Source: an uncultured Thermoguttaceae bacterium (GTDB taxonomy: Bacteria > Planctomycetota > Planctomycetia > Pirellulales > Thermoguttaceae). Taken from it: a DNA stretch of 64,000 nucleotides. Position numbers and translations under genes: made by a program. Shown here piece by piece: positions 40,823-52,922 of this stretch (position 1 is its first letter; the number at the start of each line of letters is the position of its first letter). The stretch spans positions 88,949 to 152,948 of the forward strand of contig CALKER010000017.1 of NCBI GenBank assembly GCA_938084835.1, given 5' to 3'. The notes below the pieces were generated by a model that worked only from the letters and a program-made list of their open reading frames with translations, was not told the DNA's origin and made no database searches.

Positions 40823-41746
40823 AGACTTTTTGACCCCAAACACAAATTCACACTACTAGCAGAACCTTAAATTACGGTCTCGGTAAAAAGCCTTGAAGAT
40901 TCATATACCCCGGCGCCGCACAGGACCCGGGTCCTTCCGCAAAGCTGCCTAATCCGGGCACTGGGAGGACCCCAAATCCAGGCCGAAATTTTCTGGATGG
41001 AACTATTTAAGGGCTCAACGATCTTACCGGCTTCCCAAAAGGCCGCGCCCACCGATCGAAAATATTCTCTAAAGTCTATCGCACCGCTCGGCATTTGAAA
41101 AGCCATGCCCTGCAAAAGGCACTTACAACCGATCAGCAAGCCCGCTTTGGCCCACGATGTCTTCGAAGACCTTCCGGATTTTCCCGATAGCTTTCGACTC
41201 CCGCGCTCAAATACGATCCGCTGAAGCATCCGCTCAACAAGGCTGTATCAGGAATTCCGGTTTGTGTCTTCCGCCGAACCCACCTTCGCTTGACTCGGAA
41301 ATCAAAACCATCAATGTAGAAGATTCGTCTCTGGCGAGTGAGCAATTAGTCATCATAGTGATCAGTGATCAGGCGGAGGGAGCCTGCTTCTTGGCCCTGC
41401 GGGTAAAGTCGTTCCAAAGATTTAGACCAATGGCATATCTTTACGGAGGAAACCCGACTGCTCCCTCCCCGATTGGCGAAGGTCGGGGAATTAGGCAGCC
41501 TTGAAAAAACCTTGGATCCTATTGGTCCGGGCGGCTTTCGCCCCGGGCTTACCGCGTAATGTCCCTTTCTGTTTTGAAATATGGCTGCGGATCCCCTCGC
41601 CCCTCAGTCCAACGATTTTTTCGCTTGACTTTTGTCCGCATTGGTGCGAAAGGAGGTACCATTTTTTGCCGGAACCCTAGCCGAGGGTTCTTCTCCGTCC
41701 ACGACAAAGGCCTGCGGGAGACAGGGCGACTAATCGGCTTTTGAAA

Positions 41747-41836
41747 GGTTTTCCCACGTTGGGGAAGGAGACCTTTTGCTCAAACCGGGAGGCCGCACCG
41801 ATTGCACGGTTTTCCCACGTTCGAACAAGGAGACCC
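41747..41836. repeat. Pair of direct repeats GGTTTTCCCACGTT-N(6-7)-AAGGAGACC separated by 61 nt
   Basis: Copy 1 is 41747-41773 (GGTTTTCCCACGTTGGGGAAGGAGACC) and copy 2 is 41808-41836 (GGTTTTCCCACGTTCGAACAAGGAGACCC). Both end in a Shine-Dalgarno-like AAGGAGAC and lie about 370-460 nt upstream of pilT. Confidence 0.7.
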
Positions 41837-42204
41837 TTGGAGAAAGAGAGGAAAAGTCCCCTTCGCCGCTCCGAGGTCGGCACATGCGGAGAAAATTGCG
41901 CGTCGGGAAAAATGGTTGGCGCGCCTGCTGTCACGGTACGAATGAATTCGGCACTGGCCGCCTTTAAATGACCGCTGGCCCGCCCCCCCGAGCGAATCGC
42001 AGGCCGCTCGGTTGACCGAAGGCTGTCGGGCGTTTAGAGTATCAAAAAGCACCACTAATTCTGACACCAAATTGAGATTCTGTTCCAAAACCTTGGAGCC
42101 AATTGAAGTAGCGAAGGCGTTCCGCCACGGGCAATCGCCGAGCCACAATTCGGCAAGACCAGTCGGAGGTACACAATTTTCGAAGTTTTCGAGGGTTCTA
42201 GGCG

Positions 42205-43356
42205 ATGGTGTTACCTTTGGAAGCTGATATCGAAAGATTTCGAGGAAAGCGGAAGGAGCTCGAAATCGACAAGCTTTTCCGGTCCCTTGTCCGTCATCAG
42301 GGCAGCGACCTCCACTTGAAGGTGGGTTTGCCACCTTACATTAGGGTGGCTGGGGACTTGCGGCCCCTCAATCGGGACCCCATCGACGACGAGGAAATGA
42401 TTCGCTTGGTGTTCCCGATGATGAATGAGCGAGCCCGCCGGCTGTTTGATGAGAATGGAGGAGCGGATTTCGCTTACACCGTCGATGTAGACGGCAAGAT
42501 GTGGCGGTTCCGCGTCAATGTCTTCCAGCAAATGGGACATGTGGGGCTTGTGGCACGTCGTGTCAACAATGTGATACCCAGTTTCGAGCAGTTGCATTTG
42601 CCCCCAGTCTTGGAAAAACTCTGCACTTACCACCAAGGGATGATCTTGCTGGCGGGGATTACCGGATCCGGCAAAAGTACAACCATTGCAGCCATGCTGG
42701 ATTATATCAACCACCGGTACCGAAAGCATATCCTGACCCTGGAAGATCCCATCGAGTTCGTCTTCACTGAGGATAAGTGCATCATCAACCAACGGGAGAT
42801 TGGGCAGGACGTTAAGGACTTTATGGTCGGCATGAAACATGCTGTCCGCGAAGACCCGGATGTCATCCTTGTGGGTGAGATGCGTGATAGGGAGACATTC
42901 GAGACGGCAATTCAGGCAGCGGAGACAGGCCATCTCGTCTTCGGAACCATTCACGCGAACACCGCTCCAAGCACCATCGGTCGAATCTTGGACCTTTTCC
43001 CGGAAGGTATGCACCAGGCGGTGCGAAGCGCTATCGTCTTTAACATGAAGGCGATCATCGCCCAGAAACTCCTGCCTTCAATCAAGCCGGGGGTGCAGCG
43101 GGTCCCCACATGCGAAATTATGATTTTTAACCCTATGGTGAAAAAGTTGATTTTGGAGCGGCAGGATGAAAAACTAGCGGATGCAATTCGGGTGGGAGCC
43201 TCCGAAGGAATGCAAGATTTCACCATGAGCCTTAAGGACCTCGTGGAAAAACAACTCATCGACCGACAAACGGCCTTCGAATGGGCCCCGAACCCCGAAG
43301 CATTGAAGATGGCACTGAAGGGCATCCAAGTCAAAGAATCTGGGATGGTGGGATGA
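42205..43356 (+). CDS. pilT: Type IV pilus retraction ATPase PilT (twitching motility protein)
   Basis: Walker A LLAGITGSGKSTTIAA, Asp box ILVGEMRDRETFETA, His box TGHLVFGTIHANTA, and an N-terminus (GSDLHLKVGLPPYIRVAGDL) matching PilT/PilU. Confidence 0.9.
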   Translation: MVLPLEADIERFRGKRKELEIDKLFRSLVRHQGSDLHLKVGLPPYIRVAGDLRPLNRDPIDDEEMIRLVFPMMNERARRLFDENGGADFAYTVDVDGKMWRFRVNVFQQMGHVGLVARRVNNVIPSFEQLHLPPVLEKLCTYHQGMILLAGITGSGKSTTIAAMLDYINHRYRKHILTLEDPIEFVFTEDKCIINQREIGQDVKDFMVGMKHAVREDPDVILVGEMRDRETFETAIQAAETGHLVFGTIHANTAPSTIGRILDLFPEGMHQAVRSAIVFNMKAIIAQKLLPSIKPGVQRVPTCEIMIFNPMVKKLILERQDEKLADAIRVGASEGMQDFTMSLKDLVEKQLIDRQTAFEWAPNPEALKMALKGIQVKESGMVG

Positions 43357-45137
43357 GCCAGGCGTTTGTTTGCTCCTTTGTTTGGGCCTCGCAGATGGGG
43401 AGAATTCTCGTCGCGCCGGCTTGGACCATGGCGCCGGGCTTCTTCTTAGCACAAGAGATTTCCGAGGGTTGGAGCGGCCCGGGCCTGTATTTCAGTATTT
43501 GGAAACTCGCAATCCTGCTCGTTCTCTACCTTTTGTGGGTGGCCACGAGCGACTGGGTTAATCGCGACATTTTGGAACATGATTTCGATTACAAACTTTG
43601 GAACCCAGTGGTATTTTTCACTTTTGTGGGCGCGTTTGCTTTCGCCCTTTTGGTTCCGATTTTCTTTATCGGGCTTCCTGTGCTTTTGCTGGCTTGGGCG
43701 GTACCGCTCGGTGCCTATATTGTGTTCCGAAACAAACTTGTGCACCCCAGCGACCGGGTGTTAACCAAGGCCCACTTTCGTCGTTTGATCGCCCAGCTGG
43801 GTAAACCGGCTGGGGTAAAAATCGAACCGGAAGAGGTTGACCCACGCGATGCCGGCGTACCGTTGACGCTTGCAGGGCGAGGTGGGCCGACTCCGCGGGA
43901 TGAGAACGCCCGGCTGCTTGCAGCGCGGCAGGCCGCCGGTTACAACGATCTTCGTCGCTTACTTTTTGATGGAATCAAACGTCGGGCTGAAGCCATCCTG
44001 CTTGATTACACTCAGCAAGGGGTTACGCAACGGTATTTGATCGATGGTGTGTGGATCCAAGGGGATCCCCTGGAACGAGAAGTGGGCGATGCCTTGCTGG
44101 AGGCACTTAAACTGCTCTGTGGGGCCAATCCCGAAGATCGCTCGCGCCGTCAGCAGGGGCAGTTCGCCATTAAGTGCGAAAATCGCTCTTACACCGGCGA
44201 AATGATCAGCCAAGGAACTCGCACCGGAGAGCGACTACTCATCAAACTGGAAGGCCAACGCACCCGCTTCCGGAGCCTGGAAGACCTGGGGATACGGCCA
44301 AAGGTGGCCGAGCAACTTCGCGAGATCTTGCATCGCCCCTCAGGTTTCGTTCTGTTATCAGCGCCCCCCGGTCACGGAATGAGAACCCTATGTACTACCG
44401 TTCTCCAAGTAATGGACCGGTTCACGCGGGATTTTATCTCGGTAGAAGATGAGCTTAATCGCTACGAGACGGTGGAGAACGTCCAGGTCAAGACCTATAA
44501 CTCTTCCCTGGGGCACACCCCCGCAAGTATCCTTCGGGAGGTTTTCTTGTTAGAGCCAGGGGTGGTGATCATCCGTGACCTCCTTGATGCAGACACCGTT
44601 CATAAAATGTGTCAGGAGGTCGACAACGAGCGGATGCTCCTGGCAGCAATCCGTGCCGGAGAAGCGGCAGAAGCTTATATGAACGTCCTGAAACTGGGCG
44701 TCAACCCAGGCGAATTGGGGCGTGTAATCACGGCTATTGTTTGTCAACGTCTCGTCCGCAAGCTCTGCGAATATTGTAAAGAAGCATATGTTCCGCCCCC
44801 GCAACTCCTACAACAGCTGGGGATTCCTCAGGGTCGGGTAGAGGTTCTGTTCCGACCACCCCAGCAGGCAGAGGAACCTTGCGAACATTGTTATGGCACG
44901 GGGTATCTTGGCCGCACGGGTATCTTCGAGGTGATGGTTGTGGACAATGGCTTGCGGGGTGTGTTGACTAATTTCCCCAAGATCGATTTGATTCGGCAGG
45001 CAGCCCGCAAAGCAGGGTGGCGTTCCTTCAAAGAGGAAGGGGCCCTCCTCGTGGCCAACGGCACGACTTCGGTCGCAGAATTGGCCCGCGTTCTTCGCGA
45101 GTCAGGAGAAACGAAGACCTCCCCACAACCGAGTTGA
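43353..45137 (+). CDS. Membrane-anchored GspE/PilB-like secretion ATPase homologue with degenerate catalytic motifs (predicted pseudo-ATPase)
   Basis: About four N-terminal TM helices, then a GspE N2-like region (GQFAIKCENRSYTGEMISQGTRTGERLLIKL). At the Walker A position the sequence is LLSAPPGHGMRTL instead of GPTGSGKTT. The Asp and His boxes are absent or degenerate (IIRDLLDADTVHKMCQEVDNERM). The tetracysteine zinc motif is retained (CEYCKEAY...CEHCYGTGYLGRTGIFEVMVVD). The start ATG overlaps the pilT stop (ATGA); an in-frame ATG at 43281 is an alternative. Confidence 0.75.
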   Translation: MSQAFVCSFVWASQMGRILVAPAWTMAPGFFLAQEISEGWSGPGLYFSIWKLAILLVLYLLWVATSDWVNRDILEHDFDYKLWNPVVFFTFVGAFAFALLVPIFFIGLPVLLLAWAVPLGAYIVFRNKLVHPSDRVLTKAHFRRLIAQLGKPAGVKIEPEEVDPRDAGVPLTLAGRGGPTPRDENARLLAARQAAGYNDLRRLLFDGIKRRAEAILLDYTQQGVTQRYLIDGVWIQGDPLEREVGDALLEALKLLCGANPEDRSRRQQGQFAIKCENRSYTGEMISQGTRTGERLLIKLEGQRTRFRSLEDLGIRPKVAEQLREILHRPSGFVLLSAPPGHGMRTLCTTVLQVMDRFTRDFISVEDELNRYETVENVQVKTYNSSLGHTPASILREVFLLEPGVVIIRDLLDADTVHKMCQEVDNERMLLAAIRAGEAAEAYMNVLKLGVNPGELGRVITAIVCQRLVRKLCEYCKEAYVPPPQLLQQLGIPQGRVEVLFRPPQQAEEPCEHCYGTGYLGRTGIFEVMVVDNGLRGVLTNFPKIDLIRQAARKAGWRSFKEEGALLVANGTTSVAELARVLRESGETKTSPQPS

Positions 45138-45275: not shown

Positions 45276-45941
45276 ATGGGCGCGTTGCTACCGGTTTTGC
45301 TCCTACTGATCGTGGTCTTTGTCATCGCGTTTACCTATCGCGATGGGTTATGGAACAACACCTTGCGGGTAGTCAACATAATTTTTGCCATCTTGGTGGC
45401 CATAAATTTCTGGGAACCATTGGCCGGCTTTTTGGAAAACATGTATGTGGGGGCCACATATTTTTGGGACTTTCTTGCATTGTGGGCCCTGTTCTACTTG
45501 AGCTTCGTTCTTCTGACCTTGGCCACCGTGGCAATCTCCCGGGTTAAACTCCGATTTAAAATGGTAATGGATCGTGCGGGGGCAATAGCGGCGGCGGTCC
45601 TCGCTGGGTGGCTACTCATGTCTTTTGCGGTGGTAACACTGCACACCGCGCCTTTGGCGGAGAGATTTTTCTATGGGGGCTTCGATCCCGATTCCCGACT
45701 GGTTTTCGGGACCGCTCCCGACCGTGTTTTACTGACTTTGTGTAAATATCTGTCCCGCGGGCCTTTGGCGCGGAGCACCGGGGAGGGACAAGTTAACGAA
45801 TTTGATCCAAATAGCGAGTTTATCCGCAAATACGCAAGCCGCCGTCGCGCGTACGAAGAACATCTCAAACAAAATGCCTCTGGGCCCAGAGATTTGTTAG
45901 TGCCGGAGGCAGCGGCTCCTCGGCGGTTCCGAGCCAGTTGA
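45276..45941 (+). CDS. CvpA-like (colicin V production protein family) integral membrane protein, putative
   Basis: 221 aa with four predicted TM helices. The N-terminus LLPVLLLLIVVFVIAFTYRDGLWNNTLRVVNIIFAILVAINFWEPLAGFLE resembles CvpA-family architecture. The assignment is inference. Confidence 0.45.
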   Translation: MGALLPVLLLLIVVFVIAFTYRDGLWNNTLRVVNIIFAILVAINFWEPLAGFLENMYVGATYFWDFLALWALFYLSFVLLTLATVAISRVKLRFKMVMDRAGAIAAAVLAGWLLMSFAVVTLHTAPLAERFFYGGFDPDSRLVFGTAPDRVLLTLCKYLSRGPLARSTGEGQVNEFDPNSEFIRKYASRRRAYEEHLKQNASGPRDLLVPEAAAPRRFRAS

Positions 45942-47163: not shown

Positions 47164-48852
47164 TCAATCCGCGGGAAAACCCACCACCGTGCCGAAGGCC
47201 TCCTCTGGATCTTGAGCGACTTCATCGGACAAACTTTGCGAGCAACTGAGAAGATCGTTGGTGAGCGACTGAAGCGCTGTAGCTGCCCCCACGACCGTAG
47301 GAACAACCTCGGCCTGTGGACGACTCAAAAGTTCTTTCAACTTGTGGCCGAGATAGACTAATTTTTCGGCAACGTGGCCGATCACCGCCTCAACCCGTAC
47401 AAAAAGCGACTGCTGCGCACGATCCGCCGCTTCTGCCGAATACAAAGGCAGCAACCCTTTTGCAAGAGCCAAGTTACGAAACCAACGGAGCAGTGTGCCG
47501 CGGCTAATGGTGCCCACGGGCTTGTTTTTCTCCACAATCACTACCCGGCGGATTGTCACGCGACATAAAAATTCGTAAATGCGGCGTACAGGCGTTGTGA
47601 CGTCGAAGGTCACCACGTTGTGGCGCATAAGCTCGCCCAGCGGTTTAAACCACGCCGATAGTGAGCCAAGCGCGTGCATTAGATCCTTCTCGGAGACAAT
47701 ACCTACAAGCGCTCCGTCCGACCTTACCACAGGGGCAGAGTTTGTTCGCAGGCGCGTGAACACTTCGATAGCCGAGGCCACGGAATCCGTCTCAGAAAAC
47801 GTAACTACCACGGGGGTCATCACATCCGCGGCAGTAATGCCAGCAAACGGATCATGCGTGCCTCGCGTTTCCTCAAGTGGGAAGATGGATTCCTCGATCG
47901 CCGCGGAGTAACGGACTACACGGTCGCGACCTGCCTGCTTTGCACAGAGAAGCGCTTGATCCGCCCGGTCAAGGAGCTCCTCGGGCGAGTTGACGTCCTC
48001 CTCCAAGGCCGCCACTCCAAAGCTGGCGGTGACAAATAGCGTTGTATCGCCCATTACAGCTGGAGTTCGAGCAATCGCCAGTCGCGCACGTTCTGCCCAT
48101 TCTTCAGCACCCTCCTCATCACAGTTCGGAAGGACCACACAAAACTCCTCCCCACCCAACCGGCCCAATACATCACTTGCCCGCACGTAGTGGCGCAGCA
48201 CTCGGGCCACGCTGCGCAGGACTTCGTCCCCAGCGGCATGACCATAGCAATCGTTGATCCGCTTAAAGAAATCAATATCGGCCATCGCACAAGCAAGAGG
48301 CTGCCTTTCCCTTCGCGAACGATGCCACTGCCGGTAAAACTGTTCCATGAAGGCCCGCCTCCCCGGAAGACCCGTGAGGGCATCCCGCAAGGCAGCCTCT
48401 CTAAGTTGTAACTCCAAATCGAGCAGTCGCGCGCTGGTCCGCACTCGTGCCAATAGTTCTCCTTGCGACACAGGCTTATGGAGGAAGTTGTCCGCTCCCG
48501 CGTCTAAGCAAGCGATGAGGAGGTCTTCTTCACTTTTTCCCGTCAACACGACGATGTAAACATAATGCGGCAAACTCAGCTGGCGCACGGCCCGGCAAAG
48601 CTCGATTCCGTCCAACCCAGGCATCTCCCAATCCGTAATGAGAATGTCCGGAGGAGATGCCCTCACGAGCTCTAATGCTTCTGCGCCGTCGGTAGCCTGC
48701 ATCACGACATATCCGACGGACCGAAGCCAGTGGGCAATCAACCTGACTAACGCCAAATCGTCGTCCACAACAAGGACCGATCGTGGTGTGTCGGACAATC
48801 CCCTGCCGTCTGGATTCACGTCACTCCCCCCAAAACAAAGATGTGCGTCCAA
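47164..48852 (-). CDS. Response regulator with GGDEF diguanylate cyclase and tandem CBS domains (REC-GGDEF-CBS-CBS)
   Basis: REC (VLVVDDDLALVRLIAHWLRS...ILITDWEMPGLDG), GGDEF domain with an intact GGEEF active site (RLGGEEFCVVL) and an RxxD-like I-site region, followed by two CBS domains (ITAADVMTPVVVTFSETDSVASAIEVF...; ...LGELMRHNVVTFDVTTPVRRIYEFL). Confidence 0.85.
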   Translation of the reverse strand: MDAHLCFGGSDVNPDGRGLSDTPRSVLVVDDDLALVRLIAHWLRSVGYVVMQATDGAEALELVRASPPDILITDWEMPGLDGIELCRAVRQLSLPHYVYIVVLTGKSEEDLLIACLDAGADNFLHKPVSQGELLARVRTSARLLDLELQLREAALRDALTGLPGRRAFMEQFYRQWHRSRRERQPLACAMADIDFFKRINDCYGHAAGDEVLRSVARVLRHYVRASDVLGRLGGEEFCVVLPNCDEEGAEEWAERARLAIARTPAVMGDTTLFVTASFGVAALEEDVNSPEELLDRADQALLCAKQAGRDRVVRYSAAIEESIFPLEETRGTHDPFAGITAADVMTPVVVTFSETDSVASAIEVFTRLRTNSAPVVRSDGALVGIVSEKDLMHALGSLSAWFKPLGELMRHNVVTFDVTTPVRRIYEFLCRVTIRRVVIVEKNKPVGTISRGTLLRWFRNLALAKGLLPLYSAEAADRAQQSLFVRVEAVIGHVAEKLVYLGHKLKELLSRPQAEVVPTVVGAATALQSLTNDLLSCSQSLSDEVAQDPEEAFGTVVGFPAD

Positions 48853-49751: not shown

Positions 49752-52700
49752 ATGACGAATTTTATGAATGTTCCGATCATCGCCTTGGCAACAACTGTGG
49801 CGGCGCTTGTATCACCGGGAATGACGAGAGGCCAAGATCGTAGGGAAGCGCCCCAATTGCCCCCAGCAAGACTTGAGGTCACAATCGGGGGCGTCGAACC
49901 ACAGGCAAGCTTCGAATGGTGCGGGGCGTACCTCCTCTGGTCACTCGCGGCCGAAACTCTCACAGAATCCGCCTTAGGACAAACATGGGCGTGCATCGGT
50001 TCCCGAGCTGCTCAACTCCTCGTCCTCTCGCCGTGCAGGGAGGCAGTCGTGGCTTTACCGCCCGAGAGTACCGTCGAGTTTACCCTTTCGTCGGCTCTTG
50101 CCCTTCACGGACATTTCGAGATTTGGACCGAGCCTACGTGGGATCTTGAGGGATCAACACTTCCGCAACCCGAAGTGCTCATAATTCCGAACCCGGGGCG
50201 TGAAGCATGCTCCGTCCGAGAGGGGGAGGCTTACAATTTACATGATTTGGCGGAAAAAGGGGTTAGTAGTTTTGGGCGGACCCAGTACCGTATCCCTCTT
50301 TTCCACAACCCGAGTGAGCCGAGTCCGCGGGCAGTTGCTCGGATTGTCATTCGCAGTTCGTCGGTGGCCGGTGCCATTCGTGTGGGCGGATTCACATTGG
50401 TGCTGGGTGAGAACCGTTGGACCGTGCCGATCAGTCCGCAGCCGACTGAAGAGGTATTTCCACCACCTCGCCTTCCAATTTACTTGCCGGGTATCGACGC
50501 CGGCCTCGTGGAGTGGGACTGGCGGCTTCAAGACGGTATCGGCACCCCTCGGGAGCCACGATCCTTTTCCGAAGCCCTACAACTTCTCCTTCAACGGGTG
50601 GAAAAGCTTCTTTCCCACTTGAGCCGACACGGATATGACGTGCGAAAGTGGCAGAATGAATTTGGAGAAATTCTTCATCAGTATACAATCCGTGCGTCCT
50701 CCAATCATGGCACCGACGATGATTGGCGGGCCTTTTGGCGTGAGGTCCGCTGGTGGGGACGAAAATTGATCAGCTCTATTCTTTTTGTGCGCGTTGGACC
50801 CCTGGCCTTTGTTAAGCACGTGCCTGCAGCATTCAGTCATCAGCTGACGCAGTATTACGGTCGCGACGCCCGGCCGGGCGGTGGTATTTTTCTGCTCCCT
50901 CAGCCGGGTACATCGATGACGGCGGTGGACCTTGTAGGTTCGCGACTGCCTTGCGGGAGCTACCAGCATCTTGATGTCTCGGCCGATGGAAGTCGCCTGC
51001 TTTTTGCCTTCTGTGCTGTTGATAAACCGCCTATGAATCGGGAGGCTCCCACGGACCGATATTTCCACGTATACGAACTCCGCCTCCACAACGGGGAGTT
51101 ATGTCGGCTAACAGATGGGCCTTACGACCATTTCGCGCCGCGCTACCTTCCGGATGGGAAGATCGTGCTTGTGTCGACGCGGAGGGGAGGCTTCCACCGA
51201 TGTGGCCGTGGCCCGGCTCCGGTTTACACCCTTTCCCTCTTGAAGCCGGATGGTACGATTCATGTCATCTCTTATCATGAAACACACGAATGGGATCCAG
51301 CGGTGTTGTGGGATGGAAGGATCCTTTACACTCGATGGGACTATGTGGACCGTCACGCGGTGTTCTATCAGCAGCTGTGGACGGTTCGTCCAGATGGGAC
51401 CAACGTGCAAATCTATTTCGGCAATGGAACTTTCAACCCGGTGGGAATTTGGGAAGTAACTCCCATCCCGGGGAGTCATCGGGTGATGGCAACCGCTGCA
51501 GCCCATCATGCGATGACGGCCGGATCGATCATCCTTCTGGATATTAACCGCGGACTTGATGGATTGGTGGCAATCGAGCGATTAACACCCGATGCCCCAT
51601 TTCCGGAATCTGAGGTCCCCGTCATCCGCGAACCCGGGGGTCACTGGTTTGCCCCAGTAGGAGTGGCTCACCCACTTCCTCTTCCCGTGGAAGCCCGCCG
51701 ATGGCCAGGGCACTGTTATCGGTCACCTCTCCCGTTGGACGAAGATCACTTTATTGCTGCCTATAGTTACGATCCGCTAATTGGAGAACCAACTGCCAAT
51801 CGGGCCAACATGTTTGGGCTCTATTTGTGCGATCGTTTCGGCAATAAAGAGCTTATTTATCGAGATTTGAATCATTCGTCTTTGTGGGCTGTATTCCTCC
51901 GGGCCCGTCCCAAACCGACTACCGTAGCATCCGCACTTAATTCGGAAATAACTCCGGCCTTTGGCGGTCAATCGGGCCTTAGTGCAGTCCCGATGACGGA
52001 TTCTGTCAACATAGCGACAAATGATCTCGTACGGGCTGTCTGTTGGAGCAAAGGGCCTGGGCGGCTCCCGGAACGGTCCGGACCGATCGGCCAAGGAATC
52101 TTTTTCTTGCAGAACGTTTACGAAGCTTGGCCAGCCCTTCCAGACGTGAGAATCACCCGTTTGCGAATTGTGCAGGTGCTACCAAAAACCACGCCACATA
52201 TAAACACTCCGCCGGTCGGCACAGCTCATGCCTCGCCCGGGAAACAAGTACTGGGAACCGTCCCTGTTGAGCCGGATGGATCCGCATACTTTGTCGCTCC
52301 GGCAGGAGTGCCCTTGTCATTCCAGGCCTTGGATGAGTTGGGACAGGCTGTCCAGATAATGCGGAGTGTCACCTACCTCCAGCCGGGCGAGGTGACATCG
52401 TGCCTTGGGTGCCATCAACCGCGGACTATGGCCCCGAAGCAAGGGCCTTTGCCCGCGGCTCTTCGCCGGCCTCCGTCACAGATCGTGCCGGGCCCACCCG
52501 GATCGCGGCCGCTTTCCTTCCCCCTGCTTGTCCAGCCCATTTTGGACCGGCATTGCATACGTTGTCATAATGACCAGCAAGCCGAAGCTGCCGTAAATTT
52601 ACTTGGCCGACCGGAGGGAAAATTCACGGCCTCATATCTTGCTCTGGCACCGCGGGTGAAAACTGCCGCCTGGGACAGTCGTTCGGACTTTCTCGTTACC

Positions 52701-52922
52701 AATTGCGAACCTTATACTCGTCCCGATTTCTTCGGAGCCCGCGGTTCTCCCCTCATGAAGCTTCTATTGGCCGGGCACGCCGGTATCACACTCTCCCCGG
52801 CCGAACTGGAAGCCCTTGCCACGTGGATGGACACCAATGCACTTTTCTACGGGACATTCGATCCGGAGGACCAGAAACGTCAACTTCGCGGCGAAGAGAT
52901 CACAGGACCCGCCTGGGAATAA
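49752..52922 (+). CDS. Large secreted protein with a TolB-like (PD40) beta-propeller and two C-terminal CxxCH heme-binding-type motifs
   Basis: 1056 aa with a signal peptide (PIIALATTVAALVSPG). PD40/TolB-like repeats (LPDGKIVLVSTRRGG, LLKPDGTIHVISYHETHEWDPAVLWDGRILYTRWDY, TVRPDGTNVQIYFG). C-terminal motifs SCLGCHQP and HCIRCHNDQQ each carry CxxCH. The domain family is inference. Confidence 0.6.
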   Translation: MTNFMNVPIIALATTVAALVSPGMTRGQDRREAPQLPPARLEVTIGGVEPQASFEWCGAYLLWSLAAETLTESALGQTWACIGSRAAQLLVLSPCREAVVALPPESTVEFTLSSALALHGHFEIWTEPTWDLEGSTLPQPEVLIIPNPGREACSVREGEAYNLHDLAEKGVSSFGRTQYRIPLFHNPSEPSPRAVARIVIRSSSVAGAIRVGGFTLVLGENRWTVPISPQPTEEVFPPPRLPIYLPGIDAGLVEWDWRLQDGIGTPREPRSFSEALQLLLQRVEKLLSHLSRHGYDVRKWQNEFGEILHQYTIRASSNHGTDDDWRAFWREVRWWGRKLISSILFVRVGPLAFVKHVPAAFSHQLTQYYGRDARPGGGIFLLPQPGTSMTAVDLVGSRLPCGSYQHLDVSADGSRLLFAFCAVDKPPMNREAPTDRYFHVYELRLHNGELCRLTDGPYDHFAPRYLPDGKIVLVSTRRGGFHRCGRGPAPVYTLSLLKPDGTIHVISYHETHEWDPAVLWDGRILYTRWDYVDRHAVFYQQLWTVRPDGTNVQIYFGNGTFNPVGIWEVTPIPGSHRVMATAAAHHAMTAGSIILLDINRGLDGLVAIERLTPDAPFPESEVPVIREPGGHWFAPVGVAHPLPLPVEARRWPGHCYRSPLPLDEDHFIAAYSYDPLIGEPTANRANMFGLYLCDRFGNKELIYRDLNHSSLWAVFLRARPKPTTVASALNSEITPAFGGQSGLSAVPMTDSVNIATNDLVRAVCWSKGPGRLPERSGPIGQGIFFLQNVYEAWPALPDVRITRLRIVQVLPKTTPHINTPPVGTAHASPGKQVLGTVPVEPDGSAYFVAPAGVPLSFQALDELGQAVQIMRSVTYLQPGEVTSCLGCHQPRTMAPKQGPLPAALRRPPSQIVPGPPGSRPLSFPLLVQPILDRHCIRCHNDQQAEAAVNLLGRPEGKFTASYLALAPRVKTAAWDSRSDFLVTNCEPYTRPDFFGARGSPLMKLLLAGHAGITLSPAELEALATWMDTNALFYGTFDPEDQKRQLRGEEITGPAWE

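Follow-up and report, generated by a model that had tools for sequence, protein, structure and literature searches.

According to the current view, the motors of the PilT superfamily are soluble homohexamers with only transient docking to a membrane platform. There is still debate on how PilT is recruited and positioned, and on how it is regulated. A non-hydrolysing RecA-type partner of such a motor is known from the archaellum, where FlaH (ArlH) accompanies FlaI. For the assembly ATPases GspE and PilB, GspL and PilM-PilN serve as membrane-anchored, actin-like, non-catalytic tethers (GspE-GspL complex, PDB 4PHT), and PilU is a PilT-dependent accessory ATPase encoded beside pilT (PMC6762196, PMC6821130). 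In this study, we analyzed a stretch of 64,000 nucleotides of contig CALKER010000017.1 from an uncultured Thermoguttaceae bacterium (hereafter the window), in which a gene directly downstream of a PilT-family gene encodes a relative of GspE and PilB that we designated pseudo-GspE. Our interpretation, to which we assign a probability of about 0.55, is that pseudo-GspE is a non-catalytic, inner-membrane-anchored paralogue of PilB/GspE and the dedicated partner of the upstream PilT. It would be, to our knowledge, the first described PilT-superfamily motor that is both membrane-integral and catalytically dead. A sequence-only reading of the window, made by a model without database searches, had pointed to the same gene.

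Like GspE and PilB, pseudo-GspE has the N2 domain, the flexible LGM linker, the C-terminal domain (CTD) fold and the tetracysteine zinc subdomain, and the presence of the zinc motif places it in the PilB/GspE branch by fold and descent. Unlike them, it is without all of the catalytic elements, it has a signal-like helix, three transmembrane helices and a new linker in place of the N1/GSPII domain, and its gene follows pilT and is not grouped with pilC/pilD or gsp genes. We did not file it as a GspE or a PilB, because it has lost the Walker A lysine, the catalytic glutamate, the His box and both arginine fingers, has no N1 domain and stays below the equivalog cut-offs. It resembles PilU as the second PilT-superfamily gene directly after pilT, with a presumed dependence on PilT. 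This likeness is one of gene position only: PilU is a soluble, active ATPase of the PilT clade without a zinc motif, whereas pseudo-GspE is of PilB/GspE descent, is predicted to be membrane-anchored and, judged from its residues, is probably dead. By analogy only, it is also comparable to GspL and PilM-PilN as a non-enzymatic inner-membrane holder of a PilT-superfamily motor, but the folds and origins are unrelated, and the tether in the present case would be a dead copy of the motor. FlaH is likewise comparable as a partner, but it is KaiC-like and not PilB-like, is soluble, keeps its Walker A motif and binds ATP. The sequence-only reading had known of no membrane-integral GspE pseudo-enzyme among the characterised secretion ATPases. 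Our searches agree with it, as pseudo-GspE reached no curated family cut-off and no paper describing it was found in the searchable literature. In a 2024 PilB-cofactor review, the words 'transmembrane' and 'membrane-anchored' are not present.

The open reading frame (ORF) of pseudo-GspE ends with the stop codon at 45135-45137 and has in-frame starts at 43281, 43353 and 43428. We took the ATG at 43353 as the start, because it overlaps the pilT stop codon as ATGA by direct reading of the sequence, and because the resulting 594 amino acids are the length found in close relatives; public gene calls differ between M1 and M26, and one of them (P0001, 569 aa) begins at M26. Residues 200-579 matched the Pfam family T2SSE (PF00437) with E=4.7e-42, and the best solved relatives were Thermus thermophilus PilF (E=4e-41) and PilB/GspE. 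All scores were far below the NCBIfam cut-offs: 176.7 against 630 bits for TIGR02533 (GspE), 166.9 against 617 for NF007755, 146.8 against 676 for TIGR02538 (PilB), and 17.7 against 319 for TIGR01420 (PilT/PilU subfamily). From the T2SSE and NCBIfam matches, the gene is therefore real and not a chance ORF. An AlphaFold2 (AF2) model built with the family alignment had a mean predicted local distance difference test score (pLDDT) of 90.9 and consisted of transmembrane helices followed by a PilB-like core. When this model was compared with the PDB by Foldseek, chains of PilF, PilB and GspE ranked first, with E down to 7e-35 and a target TM-score of up to 0.90.

It is known that the Walker motifs, arginine fingers and other catalytic residues are completely or highly conserved in PilT-like ATPases (McCallum et al., PMC5424180). 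In Geobacter metallireducens PilB, E395 is the catalytic glutamate, R271 and R286 are the arginine fingers, E357 of the Asp box binds Mg, and a His-box histidine, H420, contacts the gamma-phosphate (PMC5424180). To locate the corresponding positions, pseudo-GspE was aligned as a single sequence with T. thermophilus PilF, and a profile of 106 family members, which also provided the column statistics given below, was aligned with PilF and Vibrio vulnificus GspE. The two alignments agreed. In both, the canonical Walker A motif GPTGSGK[ST] was replaced by SAPPGHGMRT, and the change of the P-loop lysine to methionine noticed in the sequence-only reading was thus borne out. In the lysine column (residue 343), 104 of the 106 relatives have L and the remaining 2 have M. 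The pattern [AG]x4GK[ST] was absent at any place in all 106 members, and the profile alignment put no P-loop of the GxxGxGK[ST] type elsewhere. The same reading had taken IIRDLLDADT for the Asp box, which was a misplacement: this segment aligned instead to an atypical Walker B motif with the catalytic glutamate (DIIMVGEIRD to GVVIIRDLLD, and GEIRD to RDLLD), where the glutamate is Asp409, and aspartate stands there in 100 of the 106 relatives. The true Asp box is SVEDELNRYE (residues 363-372), in which the canonical EDPxE reads EDELNRYE. Its reported loss holds for the Mg-coordinating glutamate and not for the first Glu-Asp, which is still present; E365 is found in 105, E375 in 105 and N376 in all 106 relatives. 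The position of the Mg-binding glutamate fell on R370 or Y371 in the two alignments, with a placement uncertain by 1-2 residues, and neither candidate column is kept acidic (one is R/P/K, and the other is Y in 64, E in 21 and D in 11 relatives).

The His box, TGH...LHTN in active enzymes, reads NER...IRAG. Both histidines are arginines, with Arg at residue 427 in 101 and at residue 434 in 104 of the relatives, and the claim that the box is missing was therefore right. Both arginine fingers are also lost, a point absent from the sequence-only reading: QDGR is changed to QQGQ (residue 270, a T/S/K/A/Q column) and dvRvS to geMiS (residue 284, an L/F/I/M column). By contrast with these catalytic elements, the N2 domain aligned to those of PilF and GspE, and the four cysteines of the CxxC...CxxC motif (C472, C475, C510 and C513) are invariant in the 106 relatives, so both features had correctly been described as retained. 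The replacements suggest that pseudo-GspE has no ATPase activity.

Relatives of pseudo-GspE were found in large numbers. A word-indexed search gave 191, and all of the named ones belong to Planctomycetota (Thermoguttaceae, Pirellulales and 'Planctomycetaceae' metagenome-assembled genomes (MAGs)). When one genome per GTDB species was scanned, 559 candidate stretches were confirmed. The best 80 of these 559, from which the locus statistics for GTDB species were taken, are all from planctomycete MAGs save one probable binning error, and at least 80 GTDB species are carriers. The exception, L083, is labelled as a Granulosicoccus (gammaproteobacterial) MAG, is 38% identical and has the same pilT and cvpA neighbours; a binning error is the most likely cause, more so than a horizontal transfer. 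A profile of the N-terminal 196 residues matched 505 clusters at 50% identity (E<=1e-10), always at the N-terminus of proteins of 575-760 amino acids or of fragments.

Among the 106 aligned sequences, 41 columns are invariant. The regional conservation was 0.76 for the zinc subdomain, 0.73 for the C-terminal helices and 0.62 for the former catalytic core (CTD core); that the first two are the most conserved, above the core, fits a protein-protein interface. Of 59 distant full-length members (30-50% identity), 58 were without the Walker A lysine. In this wider set the column of residue 409 holds D/E/Q/N/H and that of residue 434 holds R/K/H/A/L/P, and the free variation of the former glutamate and histidine positions argues for a dead site, not a rebuilt ligand site. 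Pseudo-GspE is under strong purifying selection. As already proposed from the sequence alone, the fold has been retained while catalysis was lost, as seen from the invariant columns and the hundreds of divergent members with the catalytic residues gone, and this combination, in many lineages, is that of a pseudoenzyme.

P0260 (L087:58-1797) is the sole member seen with an intact Walker A motif (GPEGAGKTTT). It is still without the catalytic glutamate and the His box, and a CvpA-like gene is still found downstream; it may represent an evolutionary stage between a membrane-anchored ATPase that was active and the dead form. In one distant lineage, a second pseudo-GspE of 441 amino acids (L088:7896-9221, +), without transmembrane helices, with STLPGDGLST at Walker A and with the zinc motif kept, directly follows the membrane-anchored copy (L088:6001-7869), and pilT lies upstream. 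The dead paralogue has therefore duplicated in this lineage.

The N-terminal region was examined for its membrane topology. No Pfam match of any kind was obtained before residue 200, and so none to the N1/GSPII domain (T2SSE_N, MshEN), which serves for docking to GspL/PilM or c-di-GMP. The N-termini of the relatives start with M-R-R, a hydrophobic run and A-x-A/Q, which is the pattern of a signal peptide, followed by a conserved GWxGPGFY. The product of the window's gene has neither the M-R-R start nor the A-x-A site; in the AF2 model, its helix 2-25 has a pLDDT of about 74, and residues 25-43 after it are disordered. Either this copy has a degenerating signal-like helix, or the true start is internal. 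In the membrane domain, W62, W68, W83 and N127 are invariant and D67, D72, N84 and Y122 are nearly so, mostly at the cytoplasmic ends of the helices, and lysine and arginine are enriched after the third transmembrane helix. The likely topology, as modelled, has the N-terminus outside or the first helix uncleaved, three transmembrane helices and a cytoplasmic PilB-like core. The placement of the conserved membrane residues hints at a juxtamembrane cytoplasmic surface, not at a periplasmic sensor. About four transmembrane helices had been counted in the first 140 or so residues from the sequence alone; three are confident, and the fourth counts only if helix 1 is uncleaved. About one tenth of the family, including P0016, P0038, P0044, P0052 and P0079 (e.g., L005:8001-10028), carries a mostly helical and charged insertion of about 90 amino acids in N2, between the FxxEY strand and SQGT.

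The protein encoded upstream has the features of an active PilT. It aligned to Aquifex aeolicus PilT with E=4e-89, it has the Walker A motif GITGSGKST, the Asp box LEDPIEF, the Walker B/glutamate motif DVILVGEMRD and the His box TGHLVFGTIH, and 56% of its positions show a conservation of at least 90%. Wherever the contig allows, pseudo-GspE is directly preceded by a PilT gene in the 80 species loci and in three metagenome contexts, at 60-99% identity of the PilT (at least 69% in all but one). For 43 of 76 loci, the overlap of the pilT stop with the pseudo-GspE start is TGATG/TAATG; it is ATGA for two further loci with an ATG start and for the window. Anchored on PilT (at least 72% identical, with room downstream), pseudo-GspE was the next gene in 69 of 70 metagenome loci. 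The link to the upstream PilT, suggested before from one window, is thus a genetic pairing far stronger than one window could show. In the single exception (L112:2316-3461), an acetyltransferase-like ORF and an HlyD-like gene come after a PilT of 77% identity, in place of pseudo-GspE. A hisF-like gene (His_biosynth, PF00977) lies directly upstream of pilT in three distant relatives (L001, L003 and L005), about 1.2-2 kb before pseudo-GspE; the corresponding site in the window is about 0.9 kb without a convincing ORF (41300-42200). In Rhodopirellula baltica, the adjacent pilT RB12773 and 'pilB' RB12774 were co-induced after 1 h of salt stress (PMC2754498). If RB12774 should be orthologous to pseudo-GspE, these would be the only expression data for the pair.

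Downstream of pseudo-GspE, a CvpA-like gene is present in about 90% of the loci; among the loci anchored on PilT that had room, it was there in 45 of 50. The fourth gene, for a membrane protein with an NTF2 domain, was detectable by sequence in about half of the loci; homologue searches with its product were shallow (7, then 11 matches), because the gene evolves fast. We count both proteins as parts of the module, and neither was included in the sequence-only reading. The features are listed in Table 1.

Table 1. Features of the pilT/pseudo-GspE module, in coordinates of the window
Feature	Position	Strand	Evidence and remarks
PilT-family ATPase, catalytic motifs intact	42205..43356	+	TIGR01420, 413 bits against a cut-off of 319
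Pseudo-GspE, PilB/GspE-like protein, predicted membrane-anchored and catalytically dead, 594 aa	43353..45137	+	T2SSE match, AF2, Foldseek
N-terminal hydrophobic helix, residues 1-25	43353..43427	+	Signal-peptide-like in relatives; atypical here, no N-terminal positive charge
Three predicted transmembrane helices, residues 49-76, 80-100 and 104-129	43497..43739	+	Hydropathy; AF2 pLDDT >89; invariant columns; loop charges
Ordered linker, predicted cytoplasmic, residues 130-196	43740..43940	+	Replaces N1/GSPII domain; motifs RVLT..H.R, GPPV.L and ARLL.ARQ.PG
N2 domain	43941..44267	+	Both arginine fingers lost; SQGT.TGER motif kept
Degenerate Walker A, SAPPGHGMRT	44358..44387	+	Residues 336-345; Lys position (343) is Met
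Asp-box region, SVEDELNRYETVENV	44439..44483	+	E365 kept; Mg-binding Glu position unconserved; N376 invariant
Walker B/catalytic-Glu region, PGVVIIRDLLD	44556..44588	+	Gly-Glu replaced by Arg-Asp409
Former His box, NERMLLAAIRAGE	44625..44663	+	Both His replaced, by Arg427 and Arg434
Tetracysteine zinc subdomain, CEYC...CEHC	44766..44891	+	Loop LQQLGIPxGR...RP; most conserved part; zinc binding predicted
CvpA-like (Colicin V production family) polytopic membrane protein	45276..45941	+	PF02674, E=2e-9
Membrane protein of no recognized family, start GTG 46021, 262 aa	46021..46809	+	N-terminal transmembrane helices, long helix, NTF2-like domain

In the arrangement that we favor, the three transmembrane helices would hold pseudo-GspE at the membrane, with its C-terminal PilB-like core in the cytoplasm. 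This core keeps the architecture of a ring former (N2, linker, CTD and zinc subdomain) and would not hydrolyze ATP. Translational coupling would supply pseudo-GspE and PilT in a fixed proportion, and pseudo-GspE may bind PilT as a stacked or a mixed ring. PilT, as the sole active motor of the module, would thereby be tethered or positioned at the membrane, and its ATP-driven movements could possibly be relayed to the transmembrane segment of pseudo-GspE and to the CvpA-like and NTF2-domain proteins. The target of the module would be either the base of a type IV pilus, where retraction would be controlled, or some other membrane device that PilT drives.

Several observations weigh against this interpretation. 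The synteny and the gene overlap indicate co-expression of PilT and pseudo-GspE, not binding. No other pilus or secretion gene was found in the 64-kb window by Pfam scans. The AIRNLIRE motif is diverged in the upstream PilT, with TVRKLILE as the family consensus, which leaves the identity of this protein as a pilus retraction motor in doubt. In addition, the close clade keeps aspartate at the glutamate position, two arginines at the histidine positions and R/T-S/T after the P-loop, and non-canonical binding of a nucleotide or another ligand by pseudo-GspE may be compatible with these residues.

With respect to the target, a hitherto unrecognized, filament-independent inner-membrane machine of Pirellulales could be formed by the products of the pilT, dead pilB, CvpA-like and NTF2-domain genes, with PilT as the sole engine and the dead PilB ring as the transmission element. 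The dead ring would be stacked on PilT, or its subunits would alternate with those of PilT in a mixed ring like that of F1-alpha/beta, and deformation of the ring would move the transmembrane helices and drive transport or envelope remodelling via the CvpA-like protein. We put this proposal forward as a speculative one and think it unlikely.

The residues kept at the former catalytic positions are also central to the idea of a ligand-sensing switch, in which a remodelled pocket of pseudo-GspE would bind ATP or ADP without hydrolysis, or a cyclic dinucleotide, and its occupancy would control the activity or recruitment of PilT. Within the close clade, conservation extends to the replacing residues (G342-L343, D409, R427 and R434), which looks like remodelling and not like free decay, and a REC-GGDEF-CBS cyclase gene adjoins the module in the window. 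However, residues 409 and 434 vary freely in the wider family, where no family-wide ligand-binding constellation is seen, the P-loop lysine and both arginine fingers are gone, and the GGDEF gene is missing from the other contexts read. We therefore consider such a switch unlikely.

Another conceivable role of pseudo-GspE is that of a competitive placeholder or inhibitor at the pilus base. A dead mimic of PilB would fill the docking site of the extension ATPase on PilC/PilM and gate extension versus retraction, and binding to PilT would not be required. The assembly-type (PilB/GspE) descent with the zinc motif and the best scores for GspE/PilB, not PilT, are consistent with this, and the face of N2 that would point to the membrane is kept in the AF2 model. 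On the other hand, the N1 domain, which is the GspL/PilM-type docking element of the assembly ATPases, is replaced by transmembrane helices, the module is unlinked to pilB, pilC and pilM in all loci read, and the strict coupling to pilT and the conserved CvpA-like and NTF2-domain partners would be unexplained. These points make the placeholder improbable.

It is still less probable that pseudo-GspE is an active ATPase of a non-canonical type, in which Arg344, Arg427 or Arg434 would substitute for the P-loop lysine and Asp409 would serve as the catalytic base. The conservation of S/T at 345, E365 and D409 in the close clade and the intact Walker A motif of P0260 would fit such an enzyme, but five independent catalytic elements were lost together, and Arg344 is threonine in 28 of the 106 relatives; we judge it very unlikely. 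Finally, a functionless, decaying duplicate of pilB, as the degenerate catalytic motifs might suggest, is hardly credible, as hundreds of lineages, down to an identity of about 30%, have kept the ORF at full length, and as there are 41 invariant columns, a fold predicted with confidence and a conserved synteny; the conservation data effectively refute the reading of 43353..45137 as a pseudogene.

An entire order of bacteria that are abundant in the environment has maintained the pseudo-GspE family, in a fixed genetic link with an active PilT. If pseudo-GspE tethers or gates PilT, as in the arrangement that we favor, the module would be a simple natural system for motor recruitment, and if it works without a pilus, the PilT engine would have been put to a new use. 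A concrete and testable genomic partner is also provided for the CvpA family, which is poorly understood. The annotations of pseudo-GspE family members include 'ATPase, T2SS/T4P/T4SS family', 'GspE/PilB-like' and even 'TadA'. Assembly ATPases will therefore be miscounted when the capacity for secretion or pili is inferred from planctomycete genomes.

The neighbours of the module in the window have housekeeping functions; among them are pnp, rpsO, leuS and the gene of a release factor. The PADLOC models of defence systems gave no match for three of the module proteins and only weak, generic P-loop matches for PilT, and a scan for promoters and terminators performed no better than shuffles. The receiver-GGDEF-CBS diguanylate cyclase gene (47164..48852, -) is convergent with the end of the module; we rejected it as a module member, as it is missing from three other contexts read. 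Further downstream, an ORF at 49752..52922 (+) encodes a protein of 1056 amino acids that matched the hydrazine-synthase-alpha middle domain (PF18582, E=6e-22) and has, near its C-terminus, two CxxCH motifs of the haem-binding type.

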